A DNA stretch of 64,000 bases from Escherichia phage p000v. Positions 2,294 through 52,355 of the stretch are shown piece by piece; within the stretch, counting starts at the first letter, position 1, and the number at the start of each line of letters is the position of its first letter. The DNA is taken from the sequence record NC_055781.1. One strand, 5' to 3'. The notes under the pieces were generated by a model. That model was not told the DNA's origin. It made no database searches and saw nothing but the letters and a program-made list of their open reading frames with translations. The translations under genes and the position numbers were made by a program.

Positions 2294-2821
2294 ATGAACG
2301 CTAAAGATATTTTCAACCTGGTAAATTATAACGACGGTAAATTTAAATCTGAAGCACAGAGCAAGTTCTTTAATGACGTTGCTTATGGTAACGAGATTAC
2401 CGTGGATGGAGGTCAGATTTTCAAATCTCGCTGGAATTGGATTGTTATCATCGATTCAGTTGGAATTGTGGAAGTCTACAAAAACACTAACAAAAAACGT
2501 ACATTATTCTGGTCTCGTGAAACTAACGAGCAGTACAAAAAGGATAAAGCATCTCGTTTATCCAAAGTAACCCAGGAAGATATCGAGTTCATTAAGAAAG
2601 ATATCGAGATGTATGAAAATTTAATCGCTGAAGACCAGGCAGTACTCGATAAGTTTGATGAAATTAAAGCTTCTCGTGAAATCCCTGACTTCATGAAAGA
2701 AACAGTAAACGAACGATACGCTCTCACTTCAGAACGTATTGCAAACTATACAAAACAGAAAGCAGAACGTATTAGTACTCTTCGGAAATTTGAAGAACGT
2801 TTAAAGACGGTTCACGCATAA
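2294..2821 (+). CDS. hypothetical protein
   Basis: ORF track 175 aa; RBS GGAGG upstream. Confidence 0.55.
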   Translation: MNAKDIFNLVNYNDGKFKSEAQSKFFNDVAYGNEITVDGGQIFKSRWNWIVIIDSVGIVEVYKNTNKKRTLFWSRETNEQYKKDKASRLSKVTQEDIEFIKKDIEMYENLIAEDQAVLDKFDEIKASREIPDFMKETVNERYALTSERIANYTKQKAERISTLRKFEERLKTVHA

Positions 2822-2883
2822 ACGCTTTACCCAAGGACGGGTTATAATGGTTTTGAGTTCCAATTCAATCTGAGGAAATAGTT

Positions 2884-3879
2884 ATGAGCATTACATCTGA
2901 TGCGGTAAAACATGAAATTAACGGTTTATGTGCTTCACAGATTAAAGTGTGGTTTAAAGACCATAACGATCGCAGAGCACTTAATTATGAGCAAATTGCT
3001 ATCCAAGTTCATCAATTACTGACTAGTAAATTTGATTTTCATATGCCGTCTGAAATCTATACTAATCTGCCGCGAGCACTTATTAAAGCGTGTAAAGGTT
3101 ATGGAAAATCAATGGCTGACGGAATCTTCAGCGCGCTGAATAAACTTAACGTTCTGTCGATGATTAACTCTAACAATATCCTGCGTAATCTAGGACGTAC
3201 TGATTTGTTCGGTCGTGAACAGTGTAAAATGCCTTTGAAATGGATTGTTGCTCATCTTAACGAGAACCAAACACGTTTTATGGCCGTAACAGCACGTTTA
3301 CAAATGGGCCTAGATCGTCAGATGAACTTTAAAACTCATCCACGTTATTCAGGTTCAACAGACTTTTATAAATGTGAGCTTCAAAAGGTTGGTGGTAAAA
3401 CTGTCTTAGTAGTTCGTGTAACGTTTGAAGGACGACGTCAAGGATATTTTGACATAATCGGCTCTGGTCTTAAACATTGTGGATTTATCGACGAAGTTGA
3501 TATCAAGCGAGACGGCATTGGATACCGTATTGGGTATGTTTGTACTCTTAAAGAAGAGATTTCAGGACCAGCTCCAGGACTAAAAGACGTTAGATATAAA
3601 GACGAGCTCGTTGAAGAAATAAAAGAAGTTGAATATGATATCAACCAAGAAGATGCTCTTAAAGACCTTATTGATGAACTGAACCAAGATGTTATTCCTG
3701 TTCAGAAATTTGAATCAAAACATGCTGAGCAAATCAAATACTTTGAAGCTTTGATTAACGAACTTAATGTAACTATTCAACAGACTGACGATGAAATCTC
3801 ACGATTAGCAGGCTTAAACGGTAAAAATAAAACAGAACGAGCTAATCTTATTCAAGTAGTAAAACTTCTTAAGGAATGA
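2884..3879 (+). CDS. hypothetical protein with C-terminal coiled-coil-like region
   Basis: ORF track 331 aa; RBS GAGGAAA. Confidence 0.55.
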   Translation: MSITSDAVKHEINGLCASQIKVWFKDHNDRRALNYEQIAIQVHQLLTSKFDFHMPSEIYTNLPRALIKACKGYGKSMADGIFSALNKLNVLSMINSNNILRNLGRTDLFGREQCKMPLKWIVAHLNENQTRFMAVTARLQMGLDRQMNFKTHPRYSGSTDFYKCELQKVGGKTVLVVRVTFEGRRQGYFDIIGSGLKHCGFIDEVDIKRDGIGYRIGYVCTLKEEISGPAPGLKDVRYKDELVEEIKEVEYDINQEDALKDLIDELNQDVIPVQKFESKHAEQIKYFEALINELNVTIQQTDDEISRLAGLNGKNKTERANLIQVVKLLKE

Positions 3880-3925
3880 TGTACAACCAAGGATGGTTGG
3901 AGTATAATGAATCTATCTTAACTAG
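3877..3925 (+). repeat. repeated early-promoter cassette (copy 1 of CAACCAAGGATGGTTGGAGTATAAT...CTATCTTAAC)
   Basis: Near-identical copy at 45146-45190 and a diverged copy at 45701-45730. Confidence 0.6.
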
Positions 3926-3936
3926 AGGAAAATATT

Positions 3937-4887
3937 ATGACACGTTCACATTACATTGAATACTTTGCCGGTCTTATCGCTAACGTTCATGCTCAGCGCG
4001 CTTCTGGTGCACTAGGATTTGATGTTCCACACCGAGATGTAGTAAGTGGTATTCTTCGCGATTTTGGTACATACACAGGCCAAGAAAATCATATCTGTAA
4101 AGATACTCAGAATGCATATTCTCATTCATTAGGGACACTGCTTCAATGGTTCAAACGTTCTCGTTTATTATCTTCTACTGTAGCTCGCGATAACATTAAA
4201 AACTTTATGAAACCGAGCTTTATTAAATCTGTGACATCTAAAACCGATTTGGTTGAATTCACTATTGTTAATGATGTTAAAAAGACTCATTTAGCTGATT
4301 GGTTATCTACCATTCCTGAAACTAAATTTGCTGATAAATTTGCTTGTGAATTCAATAACCAAGTGAATATGCTTTTTAAACATTCTCGTAAATTATTCAC
4401 AGGCGGCGATGATCGTACAAATAAAGTTCATGTTAAAGATTGGGTTACTGCAGTATTCAAACCAACAGGTAATGGTAACGCATCATTGTCAATTGATATT
4501 CAGGTTCCTTATTACTACTCACGTAATCTCGGCACCATGAAAGCCGAAGAAATTAATAAGCGCAACAAAACCATTCGTTCGCTGTCTTATAAACTTCGCA
4601 TGATGTTAAGAATCATGGACGTGGTAGAAATGTATGATGAAACCGAAGATAATGGTTCAATGTTATACAGTTCTCGCATTCAAATTAAGTTGAAGAACCC
4701 TAACGAGTATAAGCCTAAGCCTATTAAAGAGCCTAAAGCAGAAAAAGTTGATAACTTAAGAGAAGAACGCGAATATCTCAAATCTCGTCTGAAAGAAGTC
4801 GAAGCCCAGATTAAAGAACAGACTAAATCGTTAAAAGCTCTGAATGCGAAAGCGGATGGTTTACGAAATGCCATTGAGGTGTTATAA
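3937..4887 (+). CDS. hypothetical protein with C-terminal coiled-coil-like region
   Basis: ORF track 316 aa; RBS GAGGAAAA. Confidence 0.55.
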   Translation: MTRSHYIEYFAGLIANVHAQRASGALGFDVPHRDVVSGILRDFGTYTGQENHICKDTQNAYSHSLGTLLQWFKRSRLLSSTVARDNIKNFMKPSFIKSVTSKTDLVEFTIVNDVKKTHLADWLSTIPETKFADKFACEFNNQVNMLFKHSRKLFTGGDDRTNKVHVKDWVTAVFKPTGNGNASLSIDIQVPYYYSRNLGTMKAEEINKRNKTIRSLSYKLRMMLRIMDVVEMYDETEDNGSMLYSSRIQIKLKNPNEYKPKPIKEPKAEKVDNLREEREYLKSRLKEVEAQIKEQTKSLKALNAKADGLRNAIEVL

Positions 4888-5192
4888 TGAAACTACGTCT
4901 TTTAGAGGATATTGATATGAGCACTAATCATGGCTTGGTTAAGTTTATTGACGATAGTTCAAAGATTGAATTTGTTCAGCGAGATAAAATCCACGGTGAA
5001 GAAGAGTTCGTTCCTCCAGCATGGAACGAAATAATGAAAATGGTTGAACGACGTGAAAATGCCGCCAAATCGGCAGCAAAACATCCGTGTCCGGAATGTG
5101 GAACTATCCAAGTCCAACTGGTTAACTGGACCAGTGATAACTTGAAATTGAAATGCCGTAAATGCTTCCACAAATTTGAGAGAACATTATAA
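4887..5192 (+). CDS. small Cys4 zinc-ribbon protein
   Basis: CPECG ... CRKC pairs; start overlaps upstream stop (TAATG). Confidence 0.5.
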   Translation: MKLRLLEDIDMSTNHGLVKFIDDSSKIEFVQRDKIHGEEEFVPPAWNEIMKMVERRENAAKSAAKHPCPECGTIQVQLVNWTSDNLKLKCRKCFHKFERTL

Positions 5193-5605
5193 TGAGATAT
5201 AGCCTTCGTTGTTTTATCGCAGCTTTAGTTTTTGCCATTATTCCATTCATTTGGAACAGCCAGAATACTTACATGGAAACTAAAGTAATTCCTGTGGAGG
5301 TAGTGGAATTAATCTCAGGCCAATCTACAGGAAAATATTCTAAATTAGAATTTATTGCAGTCTATAAAGATGAGCAAGGACGAGTTTTTGACAGGCGTGT
5401 ATCACCTTCGTTTTATACGCTTCTGAATAAAGGTGATACGATAGCTATAGAAATTCGTGAGATGGATATCAAACAAACTACTAAAGATAACTTGATTTGG
5501 TTCTTTGGTACAGTGTTGTTGGTTTCTATCTGTATCACAGGTTTTATTACATGTATTGTATTTGGCATTGCATATTTAATCGATGAAAGGAAAAATAATG
5601 TTTAA
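5192..5605 (+). CDS. membrane protein (two predicted TM segments)
   Basis: Hydrophobic N- and C-terminal segments; ATGA-type start overlap. Confidence 0.5.
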   Translation: MRYSLRCFIAALVFAIIPFIWNSQNTYMETKVIPVEVVELISGQSTGKYSKLEFIAVYKDEQGRVFDRRVSPSFYTLLNKGDTIAIEIREMDIKQTTKDNLIWFFGTVLLVSICITGFITCIVFGIAYLIDERKNNV

Positions 5606-5861
5606 AGTGTACGGGTATGACTCTACTATTCATAAATGCATTTATTGTGATAATGCGAAACGATTGCTGACTGTTAAGAAACAGCCGTTCGAATTCATTA
5701 ATGTTATGCCAGAAAAAGGTGTTTTTGATGATGAGAAAATTGCTGAGCTTCTGGTTAAGCTTGGACGTGAATCACAAGTCGGATTGACTATGCCTCAAGT
5801 GTTTGCTCCTGACGGAAGTCACATTGGTGGATTTGACCAACTACGAGAATATTTTAAATGA
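5598..5861 (+). CDS. nrdC: glutaredoxin-like thioredoxin NrdC
   Basis: MFKVYGYDS..KCIYCDNAK..PQVFAPDGSHIGGFDQLREYFK matches recalled T4 NrdC almost residue for residue. Confidence 0.85.
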   Translation: MFKVYGYDSTIHKCIYCDNAKRLLTVKKQPFEFINVMPEKGVFDDEKIAELLVKLGRESQVGLTMPQVFAPDGSHIGGFDQLREYFK

Positions 5862-6154
5862 GTATTGATTTAACTTTCCCTGGCCCTTATGACCAGGGTG
5901 AATTAGAAGCTTTATTATATCAAGAAATGTGCTCTCGTGCCAAGAACGATATTCAGTATGCTATCGATAATCCATGGGGCGAATTTCGAGTAATGATGGG
6001 TAATCGAATCATCGGTGTCCAATGGCGATTCGTTGGCCTTGAGCCTGAGGACTATGAAGAAAACGAGCACGGTGACTGGATTCCTGTTGGTGAATATCAC
6101 TGGGAATACGGTGGTCCTGATTTTGAAGTCTCTTGTTCATGGGTAGAACAATAA
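5858..6154 (+). CDS. hypothetical protein
   Basis: ORF track 98 aa; coupled start. Confidence 0.5.
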   Translation: MSIDLTFPGPYDQGELEALLYQEMCSRAKNDIQYAIDNPWGEFRVMMGNRIIGVQWRFVGLEPEDYEENEHGDWIPVGEYHWEYGGPDFEVSCSWVEQ

Positions 6155-6172
6155 CCTGCGAGAAAATTTTAA

Positions 6173-6529
6173 ATGACATATTCATTAAATCTTAAAGATT
6201 TCCAGGATGTATACGAAGTTTGTGCCAACGAACTTGGTCCTGATGCTCCAACTATTATTGAAGTTTTAAATGTGCTCCCTTCATCATTAGCTTACGAAGC
6301 CAAATCATGGGGATGGAACGACACTGTCGTTCGTGATGACCTTTACGTCCTGATGAACGACATGATGGTTAAAAAGGCAGAACCGGTTGCACCAATGGTT
6401 ACCATTACCATTGAAGAATATAATCGCCTGCAAGCCATTGAAGAGCTTCTGTGGAACATTGAATGTGACCTGCCGTCAGGGCTAGAATCCTGGATTGATT
6501 ATGAAGAGCTCAATAAACTCCGGGGTTAA
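6173..6529 (+). CDS. hypothetical protein
   Basis: ORF track 118 aa. Confidence 0.5.
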   Translation: MTYSLNLKDFQDVYEVCANELGPDAPTIIEVLNVLPSSLAYEAKSWGWNDTVVRDDLYVLMNDMMVKKAEPVAPMVTITIEEYNRLQAIEELLWNIECDLPSGLESWIDYEELNKLRG

Positions 6530-48108: not shown

Positions 48109-48531
48109 ATGGCTTTTAAAGGTTTTGAAGTTGGTAAGAAATATCGTATTATCAAAGGTCAAGAAGATAATTTCTTGAGAATTCTTAATACGACTGGTAA
48201 ACGTCTTAACACTACTCTGCATACAGTTTTATTATCAAGAGATTTTATTGTAGAAGAGATGATTGGCTACGGTGTTTCAATGATTGCCGCTGAAACCGAT
48301 GGACCTGGACGTACAATCATTAGTATGCAAGGTGATATTCTAATTTACGGTGCAGAATTTAAATTCTTTGAAGAAGTTCAGGAACCAGATACAGCTGTCG
48401 ATTTCAAAAAAGGCTCTATAGAATTTGTTGATGGTTCGGTGATCGTATCAGGCGATGTGGTCATTACAGTTAAAAGTGAACAAGGGCGTTTGGCTGCAAT
48501 TGATGCACTTCAGAAAATTAAATTTAAATAA
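48109..48531 (+). CDS. hypothetical protein
   Basis: ORF track 140 aa. Confidence 0.5.
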   Translation: MAFKGFEVGKKYRIIKGQEDNFLRILNTTGKRLNTTLHTVLLSRDFIVEEMIGYGVSMIAAETDGPGRTIISMQGDILIYGAEFKFFEEVQEPDTAVDFKKGSIEFVDGSVIVSGDVVITVKSEQGRLAAIDALQKIKFK

Positions 48532-48548
48532 GGGCTTCGGCCCTTTTT
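48531..48548 (+). terminator. hairpin AGGGC-UUCG-GCCCU + U5
   Basis: 5 bp stem, UUCG loop, TTTTT. Confidence 0.55.
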
Positions 48549-48594: not shown

Positions 48595-50415
48595 ATGATT
48601 AAAAATGAAATTAAGGTATTGTCGGATGTAGAACATATTAAGAAACGTAGTGGCATGTATATTGGTTCTTCTGCTAAAGAAGCCCACGAGCGTTTTTTGT
48701 TTGGTAAATATCAACAAGTTGAATATGTTCCTGGTCTGGTTAAATTAATCGATGAGATTATTGACAACTCGGTTGATGAAGCTATTCGTACATCATTTAA
48801 GTTTGCAAATAAAATTGATGTGCAAATTAAAAATAATCAAGTTTCGGTGGAAGATAACGGACGTGGTATTCCTCAAGGTTTAGTTACCGACCAAACAGGT
48901 GAACAAATTCCTGGGCCTGTAGCAGCCTGGACTATTCCAAAGGCCGGTGGTAACTTTGGTGATGACTCTGAACGTAAGACTGGTGGTATGAACGGCGTCG
49001 GGAGTAGTTTAACTAATATCTTCTCTACGTTGTTTACAGGCATCACGTCAGATGGCGAAAATGAAATCACTGTTAACTGTTCAAACGGAATGGAAAACAA
49101 ATCATGGTCTTCTAAGAAATCTAAAGGTAAAGGCACTAAAGTAATCTTCACTCCTGATTTCACTTCATTTGAAGAGCATAATTTATCTCAAATTTATTTA
49201 GATATTACTTTAGACCGACTTCAAACATTGGCAGTCGTTTATCCTGATATCAAGTTCACATTTAATGGTAAAAAGGTCGATGGTAATTTTAAACGATTTG
49301 CTAAACAATTTGGTGAAGATAACATCATTCAAGAAAATGATAAAGTCTCTATAGCATTCACAACATCACCAGATGGCTTCCGTCATTTAACTTATGTGAA
49401 TAACATCCATACTAAAAATGGTGGACATCATGTTGAATGTGTAATGGACGATATCTGCGAACATCTTTTGCCGGGTATTAAAAAGAAATATAAGGGTATT
49501 GAAGTCACTAAAGCTCGTGTTAAAGAATGTCTCACAATGTTGATGTTTATTAGAGACATGAGCAACATGCGTTTTGATTCTCAGACTAAAGAACGTTTAA
49601 CGTCAACGTACGGTGATATTCGTAATCATATCCAATTAGATGCTAAGAAAATTGCTCAGGCACTTCTTAAAAATGAAGCCTTGATTATGCCTATTGTTGA
49701 AGCAGCATTAGCTCGTAAATTGGCGGCAGAAAAGGCTGCAGAAACTAAAGCAGCTAAAAAGGCAACTAAAGCTAAGGTTCATAAGCATATTAAAGCTAAC
49801 CAATGTGGTAAAGATGCAGATACGACATTGTTTTTAACAGAAGGTGATTCGGCAATTGGATATCTCATTGATGTTCGTGACCGTGAACTACATGGTGGAT
49901 TCCCATTACGTGGTAAGGTGATGAATAGCTGGGGTATGTCATATGCTGATATGATGAAGAACAAAGAGCTCTTTGATATCTGTGCTATCACGGGTCTTAT
50001 TCTTGGTGAAAAAGCAGAGAATACGAACTATCGTAATATTGCAATTATGACCGATGCCGATCATGACGGCCTTGGAAGTATTTATCCTGCTTTGCTTGCT
50101 TTCTTTAGTAATTGGCCTGAATTGTTTGAACAAGGACGTATTCGCTTTGTTAAAACACCTGTAATTATTGCACAAATTGGCAAAACTCAAAAATGGTTTT
50201 ATACTGTAGCTGAGTATGAAGAAGTTAAAGATACACTGCCTAAGCATAGTATTCGATACATCAAGGGATTGGGCTCACTTCAGCGGGATGAATATAAAGA
50301 AATGATTCAAAACCCTGTGTACGACGTAGTTAAACTTCCTGAAAATTGGAAAGAACTATTTGAAATGCTCATGGGTAACGACCCTGAACTCCGTAAAGAT
50401 TGGATGCTAGGATAA
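48595..50415 (+). CDS. 39: topoisomerase II large subunit (GyrB-like ATPase plus TOPRIM), single uninterrupted ORF
   Basis: GHKL motifs IDEIIDNSVDEA and DNGRGIP; TOPRIM LFLTEGDSA and DADHDG; 606 aa. Confidence 0.92.
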   Translation: MIKNEIKVLSDVEHIKKRSGMYIGSSAKEAHERFLFGKYQQVEYVPGLVKLIDEIIDNSVDEAIRTSFKFANKIDVQIKNNQVSVEDNGRGIPQGLVTDQTGEQIPGPVAAWTIPKAGGNFGDDSERKTGGMNGVGSSLTNIFSTLFTGITSDGENEITVNCSNGMENKSWSSKKSKGKGTKVIFTPDFTSFEEHNLSQIYLDITLDRLQTLAVVYPDIKFTFNGKKVDGNFKRFAKQFGEDNIIQENDKVSIAFTTSPDGFRHLTYVNNIHTKNGGHHVECVMDDICEHLLPGIKKKYKGIEVTKARVKECLTMLMFIRDMSNMRFDSQTKERLTSTYGDIRNHIQLDAKKIAQALLKNEALIMPIVEAALARKLAAEKAAETKAAKKATKAKVHKHIKANQCGKDADTTLFLTEGDSAIGYLIDVRDRELHGGFPLRGKVMNSWGMSYADMMKNKELFDICAITGLILGEKAENTNYRNIAIMTDADHDGLGSIYPALLAFFSNWPELFEQGRIRFVKTPVIIAQIGKTQKWFYTVAEYEEVKDTLPKHSIRYIKGLGSLQRDEYKEMIQNPVYDVVKLPENWKELFEMLMGNDPELRKDWMLG

Positions 50416-51212
50416 TGAATTATCGTAAAATTTATGATAAACTTATCGCTGCGGCTAAAAACCGCAGCACTATTCCTAATTATACTGAAACTCACCATAT
50501 TTTGCCTAAATCTATGGGTGGGAGTAATGCTAAATCAAATCTAGTTAAAATGACCCCTAGAGAGCATTTTATCGCCCATTTATTGCTTTATAAAATTCAT
50601 AAGAACCGTTCTATGCTTATGGCTATTAGAGCTTTTTACATGGGAGCTAGAAATTCTAGAGATTATGATTGGCTTAAACAAGAATTCTCTAAAGAGCACT
50701 CTAGATTTATGAAAGAATGGATTGCTAAAAATGGCAACCCATTTAAAGGTAAAAAACATACTAAAGCAACAAGAGAATTAATGTCACATATTGCTTCACA
50801 ACGTATAGGCGAATTAAATCCGTTTTATGGTAAAACTCATACGCAAGAAGCAATAGATAAAATAATACAGGCCAACAAGTTATCTTGGGAGAATGGGCGA
50901 AAAGCACCTGTAAAAACAAAAGAACACCAGGATAAAATAACTAAATCAAGAATGGAAACATTTAAAACAAAAGGATTTAAACCATACACTCCTAGGTCGG
51001 AAGAAACTAAAGCTAAGACTAGAGAGTTGTATAAATCTAAATATGAAAGAAGGCCTATAAGAATCACAAGTGTAAAAACAGGTGAAACTATTGATTTTAA
51101 CTATCTTTATGAATTAAGGGAGTATTTAGGTATAGGGTCTTCTAATATATTGAAAGCATTAAATAATCCTAACAGAACCTGCAAAGGTTATAAAATGTGT
51201 TGGATGTCCTAA
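50415..51212 (+). CDS. HNH homing endonuclease with NUMOD3-like repeats
   Basis: ETHHILPKSMGG...N...REH HNH motif; repeated NPF(K/Y)GK.HT motifs; start overlaps gene 39 stop (TAATG). Confidence 0.8.
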   Translation: MNYRKIYDKLIAAAKNRSTIPNYTETHHILPKSMGGSNAKSNLVKMTPREHFIAHLLLYKIHKNRSMLMAIRAFYMGARNSRDYDWLKQEFSKEHSRFMKEWIAKNGNPFKGKKHTKATRELMSHIASQRIGELNPFYGKTHTQEAIDKIIQANKLSWENGRKAPVKTKEHQDKITKSRMETFKTKGFKPYTPRSEETKAKTRELYKSKYERRPIRITSVKTGETIDFNYLYELREYLGIGSSNILKALNNPNRTCKGYKMCWMS

Positions 51213-51235
51213 GCTCCTTCGGGAGCTTCATTTTA
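51211..51235 (+). terminator. hairpin AAGCUCC-UUCG-GGAGCUU followed by T-rich run
   Basis: 7 bp stem with UUCG loop. Confidence 0.5.
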
Positions 51236-51254: not shown

Positions 51255-52355
51255 ATGAAAGTTATGTTTATCCCATCTCGCGCAGTCCCATTTAACCCAG
51301 AACGTGTACAAGGTGGTCTTGAAGCAGTACATTTAAATGTATTGAAATATCTTGTGTCCATCGGTGCTGATATTGATTATATCGGCTTTGATAATGACAC
51401 GTTTGGTGACTGGAAGGTTAATCATCATCCTGTTGGTCATCTGACTAAATTCAGTCTAGGTATGAGTTATACTATGGCTCGTAAGATTGTTGAACTAGCC
51501 GGCATCCATGAATACGATTTTGTTGTTACTATGGAACCGACTAAACTAACCGTTCAGGCAATTAAAGACGCAGGTCTCTCTAAAGTTCATAAGAATTTTA
51601 TGGCAACACCATTTGAACCGGTATCTCGTGGCATTGTTCAAATTTGGGACCAGACTATTCAAATTCATAAGAATGGTGGTAAGAGTTATGCTCCTACTAA
51701 AGCCTTCCGTGAATTTGAACGCAAATATTGTTATATGACTTCAGGTCTGACTGACAAAATTGATTATGATTATTGGCGAGCAAATCCGTTGTTTGAAGCC
51801 GAAGATTATCCGGTTATTTGTTTGACTGAAAAGCCAGAAGTTCTTCCGGCGACGGATCTGATTATTAGTGCACAACGTTATGACACTAAAATGCGTCGTA
51901 CTGATGTTGCTCTTGAAGCGATTAAAGCACTAGGCGAAAATGGTGCAGGATACTGTCCTAGTAAATGGGCACCACCAGCTAAATATCCTGTTATTATTGA
52001 TGCTCCACACAGCGAAATCATGGAACGTCTTAAAACAGCTAAAGCACTTATCAATACGTGTCCTGACACGGGTACGGTAGAGAATAGTTCTATTGAAGCC
52101 ATCTCTAAAGGTGTCCCTGTGATTCAGTTAGTTTTTAAGGATTATCCGCACGCGACATTCGAATATGACCCAGATACTGTGCGTGTAGAAATTGATTCCT
52201 CTACTCCTAAGAAAGAAGTAGTTGCGCTTTACACAAAAGCTGTATTAGAATTCACTGACACATACGAAGCTCGAGTTAAACGTGCTGAAGCAGTATGGAA
52301 GAAGTATAACCGAGATGCAGTTGTTGCGATGTGGGATAAAATCTTCACAGCGTAA
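51255..52355 (+). CDS. GT-B fold glycosyltransferase (candidate DNA hmC pentosyl/arabinosyl transferase)
   Basis: N-terminus MKVMFIPSRAV...GGLE and C-terminal ...GTVENSSIEAISKGVPVIQ resemble GT4-type GT-B motifs; 366 aa; lies between gene 39 and rIIA. Confidence 0.75.
   Translation: MKVMFIPSRAVPFNPERVQGGLEAVHLNVLKYLVSIGADIDYIGFDNDTFGDWKVNHHPVGHLTKFSLGMSYTMARKIVELAGIHEYDFVVTMEPTKLTVQAIKDAGLSKVHKNFMATPFEPVSRGIVQIWDQTIQIHKNGGKSYAPTKAFREFERKYCYMTSGLTDKIDYDYWRANPLFEAEDYPVICLTEKPEVLPATDLIISAQRYDTKMRRTDVALEAIKALGENGAGYCPSKWAPPAKYPVIIDAPHSEIMERLKTAKALINTCPDTGTVENSSIEAISKGVPVIQLVFKDYPHATFEYDPDTVRVEIDSSTPKKEVVALYTKAVLEFTDTYEARVKRAEAVWKKYNRDAVVAMWDKIFTA

Follow-up and report, generated by a model that had tools for sequence, protein, structure and literature searches.

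A Mob-type HNH/NUMOD3 homing endonuclease gene, very probably a selfish element, at the 3' end of topoisomerase gene 39 in Escherichia phage p000v

Introduction

MobA, an HNH homing endonuclease, was reportedly found by Bonocora et al. in 2011 as an insertion in topoisomerase gene 39/60. Here, we report the analysis of an endonuclease open reading frame (ORF) at the very end of gene 39 in Escherichia phage p000v (NC_055781.1), examined in a stretch of 64,000 nucleotides (nt) of that record (the window; positions are counted from its first letter). A sequence-only reading, made from the letters and without database searches, had described an intact HNH/NUMOD homing endonuclease wedged between gene 39 and a putative DNA-modifying transferase, and had suggested that the transferase cassette may have been acquired or may be mobilized through it. 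We find that the gene is very probably a free-standing, Mob-type HNH homing endonuclease and a selfish element specialized on the 3' end of gene 39.

The p000v element and MobA have the same host gene, and in both cases the ORF lacks a promoter and overlaps the one before it; each brings a recoded copy of adjacent host-gene sequence, and each is lost or decayed in some genomes. The nuclease domain of MobA is also the closest named relative (59% identity over amino acids [aa] 1-71, with the intact copy of phage CJY920). MobA, however, inserts at codon ~466-473 (equivalent to window ~50015-50079), splits the gene into 39 and 60 with CTE/NTE extensions, and usually carries a 50-nt bypass, whereas the p000v element lies at the very end of gene 39, replaces only its last codons, and leaves the gene unsplit. 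The C-terminal halves are unrelated, MobA having a unique region and the p000v protein four NUMOD3-like helices followed by a helix-turn-helix (HTH)-like domain. Identity with the MobA element was ruled out on these grounds (an unsplit gene 39 of 606 aa, an insert at the stop codon, and a dissimilar C-terminal half). CJY920 has both (locus L009), an apparently intact MobA-type insertion splitting 39/60 (2802-3908) and the endonuclease gene after gene 60 (~3908-5130).

MobE, MobY1, and MobZ (the last two names from bioRxiv 10.1101/2022.08.31.505936) are 43-44% identical to the p000v endonuclease over the N-terminal 71 aa but differ in their targets or neighbors (nrdA/nrdB, uvsW, or baseplate genes) and in their C-terminal domains. 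The N-terminal HNH domain MNYxKIY…ETHHIxPxxxGG…NLVxLTxxEHFxAH is common to the Mob endonucleases and the p000v protein, and the former are likewise modular, with a variable C-terminal targeting domain, and stand free between conserved genes, an architecture known from the T4 literature (PMC2988022). By fold, the best Protein Data Bank (PDB) match of an AlphaFold2 (AF2) model of the p000v protein was I-HmuI, an intron-encoded HNH nicking enzyme of the Bacillus phage SPO1 (PDB 1U3E; Foldseek probability 1.0, E 2e-3), which is likewise extended, its HNH domain being followed by helical DNA-binding modules and then an HTH. I-HmuI differs in lying within an intron, and the likeness is limited (~19% identity over 89 aligned columns, low TM-scores of 0.21 and 0.31, no sequence-level match). 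The p000v protein also aligned (aa 109-253) with positions 93-205 of the I-TevI-type profile (TIGR01453), the NUMOD3/HTH DNA-binding part; a GIY-YIG group I intron endonuclease was ruled out by the score (35.5 bits against a cutoff of 56.05), by the lack of a GIY-YIG domain, and by a position outside any intron.

Results

The assignment as a free-standing HNH/NUMOD3 homing endonuclease of the T-even Mob type is well supported, the protein having an HNH motif, Mob homology, and a C-terminal module of its own. It matched PHROG 655 (homing endonuclease; E 1.9e-54), residues E25, H27, H28, N42, H51, and H55 were invariant in an alignment of 30 homologs, and the model (predicted local distance difference test score [pLDDT] 87) has a beta-beta-alpha nuclease domain at the N terminus. 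The Pfam NUMOD3 model matched two stretches (36.5 bits; cutoff, 20.4), and helix repeats of this kind were placed at aa ~107-129, 134-156, 163-183, and 189-209, two of them canonical and two degenerate, each preceded in the model by an NPF/KxxH-type loop. Both the clear HNH motif and the four NUMOD3-like repeats of the sequence-only reading were therefore borne out, the repeat count being fair once the degenerate copies are included, as was the intact reading frame starting on the stop codon of gene 39, where the endonuclease ATG (50415-50417) and the gene 39 TAA (50413-50415) have one base in common (TAATG). GC content of the ORF was 32%, against 37-40% in its flanks, a low value typical of such genes, and the GenBank label of the gene was already "homing endonuclease." The protein belongs to the Mob family, was previously uncharacterized, and has a target niche of its own.

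The comparison of this junction across related phages, which that reading had called for, gave presence and absence in near-identical genomes, near-identity of the gene and its flank across diverged backgrounds, and degenerate and deleted copies. A 3.6-kb neighborhood of the gene was 98% identical to Shigella phage phi25-307, and the window belongs to a Mosigvirus (RB69-like T-even phages). Within that genus, the ORF was present in 18 records (15 phages; ~12% of Mosigvirus records) and ~129 records had the uninvaded gene 39 allele; in seven more, which lack the ORF, gene 39 has the endonuclease-linked ("H-type") 3' end with a 19-nt footprint, most simply through loss of the endonuclease gene. 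The gene was also found in 8 of ~700 Tequatrovirus-like records (~1%); the Tequatrovirus phages that have it at the equivalent position are six (fPS-90, F1, FN, FL12, BYEP01, and CJY920; 98.9-99.6% aa identity). Intact copies made up 24 of the 26, and the p000v ORF matched 24 other intact copies over their full length at 98.9-99.6% aa identity. The two others, in AV118 and ECO111 5-P, are frameshifted at an A6 homopolymer (Table 1) and are either decaying copies or products of sequencing error. ECO111 5-P (locus L019) additionally has eight substitutions within 72 nt over the HNH motif region (equivalents of 50470-50541), the remainder being ~99% identical, a cluster that may have come from gene conversion by a paralogous mob gene.

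The closest nonidentical homologs among 5.8 billion proteins were three (P0002-4) with 41-46% identity, all directly 3' of gene 39 in metagenomic T4-like contigs. The genes that follow them vary (a small ORF and rIIA.1 in one, RNA ligase 2 in another), and in contig L012 a displaced gene 39 terminus (CGTAAAGAGTGGATGAATCAATAG) lies at the endonuclease stop codon. Of the 80 IMG/VR sequences most closely related to the nuclease domain, the phiE142 copy alone had the same C-terminal domain and gene 39 as a neighbor; the other 79 loci had the nuclease/NUMOD3 part only and no neighboring gene 39. The C-terminal domain thus correlates with the niche at the gene 39 3' end, and we consider the p000v endonuclease and its three nearest homologs a site-specific clade. 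Two further matches were rejected as members of this clade, one in Thanatos-1 (a MobA-type split-gene insertion) and one in Aes012 (an HNH ORF of the baseplate region).

Gene 39, with the Pfam domains DNA_gyraseB, HATPase_c, and TOPRIM_C and so annotated in phi25-307 and RB69, ends differently in carriers. The uninvaded gene closes with …AAAGAATGGATGTCCTAA and is directly followed by a hairpin (RB69, HX01, JK45). Relative to that allele, p000v has an 800-nt insertion after TGGATG that supplies a new gene 39 end, CTA GGA TAA; the displaced old end (TGG ATG TCC TAA) now closes the endonuclease ORF, supplying its final codons and its stop. TTGGATG occurs at both flanks of the insertion (Table 1), where RB69 has a single ATGGATG and then TCCTAA. 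The hairpin is native to Mosigvirus, lying directly 3' of gene 39 in the uninvaded state, and moved to Tequatrovirus with the element. Over the last ~175 nt, gene 39 is 77-87% identical to uninvaded Mosigvirus (RB69, HX01, JK45), against 97-100% further upstream, and 99-100% identical across all carriers, including those of Tequatrovirus and of the AV116 group. In both recoded patches, uninvaded Mosigvirus alleles resemble Tequatrovirus. The H-type end could be either a co-conversion tract or an element-borne replacement end, in each case moving with the endonuclease gene.

The identity of the element, its polymorphism, its transfer tracts and their direction, and its junctions could be established by genome comparison. 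Against Tequatrovirus fPS-90 and F1, gene 39 was 65-80% identical up to ~50000 and then 98-100% identical through the ORF and the hairpin to 51303. At 426 genus-diagnostic sites, the six Tequatrovirus carriers were ~95% T-type before 49900 and switched to Mosigvirus type at 50016 (fPS-90, F1, BYEP01), ~50058 (FL12), or ~50244 (CJY920). A third background gave the same picture. In the AV116 group, identity to the window was 76.5% in upstream gene 39 and 99.0% over the final 414 nt of that gene; the endonuclease gene was 99.5% identical and the transferase 92.9%. HX01, a relative of this group without the endonuclease gene, keeps an uninvaded gene 39 end. Throughout, the endonuclease gene was accompanied by the last 170-400 nt of Mosigvirus-type gene 39.

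Among the six Tequatrovirus carriers, the right junction was inspected in five, all with one and the same junction; the sixth, FN, shares 99.2% identity with fPS-90 across the region. The junction consists of the Mosigvirus hairpin, the ribosome-binding site (RBS), and transferase codons 1-16 with single-nucleotide polymorphisms of the phi25-307 type, joined at a CTGACC microhomology to native T-type gene 39, of which the final ~32 nt are present (…CTGACCTTCGTAAAGAATGGATGAGCCAGTAG). The native gene 39 end is thereby duplicated and kept as a displaced remnant. The makeup of this junction settles the direction of transfer as Mosigvirus to Tequatrovirus; Tequatrovirus as donor was ruled out, its carriers holding the Mosigvirus hairpin, the transferase fragment, and the duplicated native end. 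A single illegitimate entry into Tequatrovirus followed by homologous spread within the genus is implied by the shared sequence of the join.

The same junction contains an in-frame chimeric mini-ORF of 24 codons (fPS-90, locus L003, ~4842-4916; also L004, L007, L008, and L009), with the RBS of the transferase and the product MKVMFIPSRAVPFNPDLRKEWMSQ, then a stop, in which arabinosyltransferase codons 1-16 are fused to the final 8 T-type gp39 codons; the FL12 annotation has a small ORF with different limits at this site. SP21535 (locus L010), a Tequatrovirus without the endonuclease gene, has a native T-type end but Mosigvirus-type patches in gene 39 (equivalents of 50016-50139 and 50233-50328), one centered on recoded patch 1; it is either a conversion that did not gain the endonuclease gene or a recombinant that lost it. 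JK45 (locus L022, 1445-4908), classed as Tequatrovirus, has a Mosigvirus-type uninvaded gene 39 end (97-100% identical to RB69), a transferase of the ORF003c type, and, ahead of rIIA.1, an additional ORF of 411 nt that follows the transferase; it is either misclassified or a hybrid.

The endonuclease gene is probably transcribed by read-through from gene 39, and its translation is probably coupled to that of gene 39, at a low level, by the overlap of stop and start. The AGGA before the start codon (Table 1) arises through two synonymous changes, CTA GGA against CTT GGT in the footprint allele. The T4 late promoter motif (TATAAATA) was absent within 10 kb, and a sigma-70-like scan gave scores no better than shuffled sequences, with no promoter signal standing out; a promoter of its own was ruled out on both counts. 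The mob genes are likewise without promoters of their own (PMC2988022). A predicted RNA hairpin over the endonuclease start was weak (z = -1.94), and we keep as a weak suggestion that it may occlude the start.

The downstream gene is a homolog of RB69 ORF003c/gp3, and the placement of the endonuclease between gene 39 and a putative DNA-modifying transferase was accordingly correct. RB69 ORF003c/gp3 was proposed as a DNA arabinosyltransferase (PMC6024577) and later listed as putative beta-arabinosyltransferase 2 (PMC13326640); the p000v ORF matched no Pfam or NCBIfam model. It is followed by rIIA.1, rIIA, and rIIB. Only its first 49 nt (51255-51303) reached Tequatrovirus, as a dead fragment. 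Within Mosigvirus, HX01, AV116, and phi25-307 are all 98-100% identical where co-conversion might extend into the transferase. The center of the transferase (51526-51850) is hypervariable in Mosigvirus (AV116 is 72-85% identical to the window, phi25-307, and HX01), with ends 95-100% identical; the mosaicism of the transferase is unrelated to the endonuclease gene.

Table 1. Features of the gene 39 3' end, the endonuclease ORF, and its surroundings in the window
Feature	Position	Strand	Remarks
Gene 39, DNA topoisomerase II large subunit	48595-50415	+	606 aa, unsplit 39+60 type
Endonuclease-linked (H-type) gene 39 3' end	50236-50414	+	Recoded in two patches
Recoded patch 1	~50283-50298	+	LEKSEYR to LQRDEYK
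Recoded patch 2	~50370-50412	+	GDDSELRKEWMS-stop to GNDPELRKDWMLG-stop
Left TTGGATG 7-nt direct repeat	50400-50406	+	gp39 codons W-M; sequence reading
Shine-Dalgarno-like AGGA and TAATG overlap	50409-50417	+	AGGA 2 nt 5' of ATG
Homing endonuclease ORF	50415-51212	+	798 nt, 265 aa plus stop, intact
HNH nuclease domain	aa ~1-90; motif aa 25-55 = nt 50487-50579	+	Alignment, AF2 model
Four NUMOD3-like helices	aa 107-209 = nt 50733-51041	+	Pfam, AF2 model
A6 homopolymer	50751-50756	+	Frameshift site in AV118 (+1 A) and ECO111 5-P (-1 A)
Beta-beta-HTH-beta DNA-binding domain	aa 214-263 = nt 51054-51203	+	AF2 model
Right TTGGATG 7-nt direct repeat	51200-51206	+	Sequence reading
TGGATGTCCTAA, displaced original gene 39 end (W-M-S-stop)	51201-51212	+	RB69/HX01/JK45 comparison
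UUCG-tetraloop terminator-like hairpin (AAGCTCCTTCGGGAGCTT + CATTTTAATT)	51211-51228	+	Annotated "terminator" in fPS-90
RB69 ORF003c/gp3 homolog, putative DNA (beta-)arabinosyltransferase	51255-52355	+	366 aa; phrog_8302 full length, E 3e-222

Several observations concern the wider locus. A second UUCG-tetraloop hairpin (48530-48545; AAGGGCTTCGGCCCTT + TTTT) lies just 5' of gene 39, so that a terminator-like hairpin stands on either side of the pair formed by gene 39 and the endonuclease gene. An annotated HNH endonuclease ORF lies directly 5' of gene 39, overlapping its start, in HX01 (locus L021, 825-1508) and AV116 (locus L020, 14-697), and an ORF with an Endonuclease_7 domain (1144-1851) takes this position in the metagenomic contig L012. 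Gene 39 thus seems to be a hotspot, offering endonucleases at least three niches: upstream (HX01), inside (MobA), and at the 3' end. In AV116 (locus L020, 4759-6206), rIIA is annotated as truncated (4759-5568) and followed by an "endonuclease" ORF (5649-6206), possibly split by another homing endonuclease insertion.

Discussion

A selfish Mob-type homing endonuclease at the gene 39 3' end is the explanation we hold with considerable confidence, and the gene, sporadically present and moving with co-converted flanks that are incongruent with their backgrounds, is apparently still mobile, to judge from the compared genomes. The mobile unit is ~800 nt long relative to uninvaded alleles and comprises the recoded last codons of gene 39 (…DWMLG-stop) and the promoter-less endonuclease ORF, its insertion having shifted the original terminus of gene 39 (TGGATGTCCTAA) downstream to the end of that ORF. 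In a mixed infection, the enzyme would nick or cut endonuclease-free gene 39 alleles within their last ~150 nt, and repair from the carrier genome would copy the endonuclease gene and, along with it, 170-400 nt of gene 39. The carrier allele would be protected by the recoded patches, by the insertion itself, or by both. Where the downstream flank is not homologous, as in a jump into a new lineage, the right side would be sealed by microhomology and a remnant of the recipient gene 39 left behind.

MobA, MobE, and I-HmuI nick their targets (PMC2988022), and by analogy the p000v enzyme probably nicks or cuts endonuclease-free alleles. Right junctions in three independent lineages lie no more than 12, 24, or 32 nt from the end of gene 39, which puts the break at about -32 from the gene 39 stop or farther upstream, plausibly in the conserved …TTTGAAATGCTCATGGG… and recoded patch 2 region. 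Recoded patch 1, ~125 nt upstream, is a second candidate cleavage region, given the naive-like patch 2 of L012 and the Mosigvirus-type tract centered on patch 1 in SP21535.

Several points weigh against the selfish-element explanation. The Pfam HNH models stayed below threshold (E ~0.01; 16 bits against cutoffs of 21-27), so that PHROG, Mob homology, the fold, and the conserved residues carry the nuclease assignment; searching the PDB by sequence with the endonuclease gave only a marginal match to the McrA HNH domain (E 0.39). In the literature searched, no paper characterizes the protein, and the phiC120 genome paper merely lists it. Clues to the cleavage site conflict, patch 2 being naive-like in L012 and patch 1 being H-type in SP21535, which is without the endonuclease gene. 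The 19-nt footprint differs from a clean deletion product at ~5 positions and could be an older empty site instead of a deletion. Finally, free recombination among T-even phages can give mosaic tracts, and near-identity demonstrates transfer without being proof of homing.

A rival explanation is an inactive relic, a non-cleaving enzyme whose ORF is intact by chance or recent origin and whose distribution reflects ordinary recombination. In its favor, T4's own mobA is defective, and two of the endonuclease copies are frameshifted; the other 24 of 26 are intact at 98.9-99.6% aa identity with invariant catalytic residues, and the occurrence of the same block in three diverged backgrounds with different tract end points argues for recent, repeated, and locus-focused transfer. 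We regard a relic as improbable. Somewhat better placed, though still unlikely, is a domesticated or weaponized nuclease that benefits its carrier by cutting competitors' gene 39 and excluding their markers, perhaps across the divide between arabinosyl and glucosyl-hydroxymethylcytosine (hmC) DNA. Marker exclusion by T4 endonucleases is established (PMC2988022), and Tequatrovirus genomes, differently modified, were evidently targets of the enzyme or at the least received its gene. Low carriage (~12% of Mosigvirus and ~1% of Tequatrovirus-like records) and the frameshifted and deleted versions are, on the other hand, the pattern of a dispensable element. This use of the nuclease is compatible with the selfish-element explanation.

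The cassette suggested by the sequence-only reading, in which endonuclease and transferase were acquired or spread as one by homing or marker exclusion, is very improbable, and only the homing endonuclease with its signs of insertion and mobility was retained from that interpretation. The two genes are adjacent, 42 nt apart, and run in the same direction, homing co-converts flanks (PMC2988022), and the first 49 nt of the transferase did enter Tequatrovirus with the endonuclease gene. Yet the transferase occupies the same locus in the ~129 records with an uninvaded gene 39 end, RB69, HX01, and JK45 among them, the Tequatrovirus carriers examined have no functional transferase there beyond the 49-nt fragment, and the endonuclease homologs are followed by other, unrelated genes. 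Divergence differs as well. In three carriers the transferase is 92.9-96.8% identical and the endonuclease 99.4-99.6%, and in ECO111 5-P the endonuclease is 98.6% and the transferase 92.7% identical; this contrast points to different histories. Since the transferase is present without the endonuclease, was barely transferred, and is absent beside the homologs, the partner of the endonuclease is gene 39. The transferase is, by these comparisons, best seen as an older resident of the Mosigvirus locus, a bystander outside the mobile unit. In crosses between Mosigvirus phages, transferase polymorphisms hitchhiking beside the insert are possible.

More tentatively, and with somewhat worse than even chances in our view, the clade may follow a strategy of "terminal replacement," carrying its own recoded 3' end of an essential conserved gene so that homology is needed on one side only and microhomology serves on the other. 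Such an element could cross between genera that otherwise do not exchange genes and that have different cytosine hypermodifications (from arabinosylated Mosigvirus to glucosyl-hmC Tequatrovirus), with an enzyme able to cut differently hypermodified DNAs. It could thereby serve at gene 39 as a natural vehicle for marker exclusion and for gene flow between genera. The displaced remnants in Mosigvirus, Tequatrovirus, and L012 would then represent three independent jumps.

The element itself is ordinary, one more T-even homing endonuclease of the Mob type. It adds a third endonuclease niche, the 3' end, to gene 39 and corrects a tempting link between endonuclease and arabinosyltransferase. If active on hypermodified DNA, the enzyme would be a possible site-specific tool for T-even phage engineering. 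RB69 was reported not to exchange genes with T4 (PMC6024577); at this locus, nature provides a clear case of DNA passing from an RB69-like phage into T4-like phages, driven or at least accompanied by an endonuclease element, in which the direction, the donor haplotype, the co-conversion end points, and the microhomology junction are all readable from the sequence.

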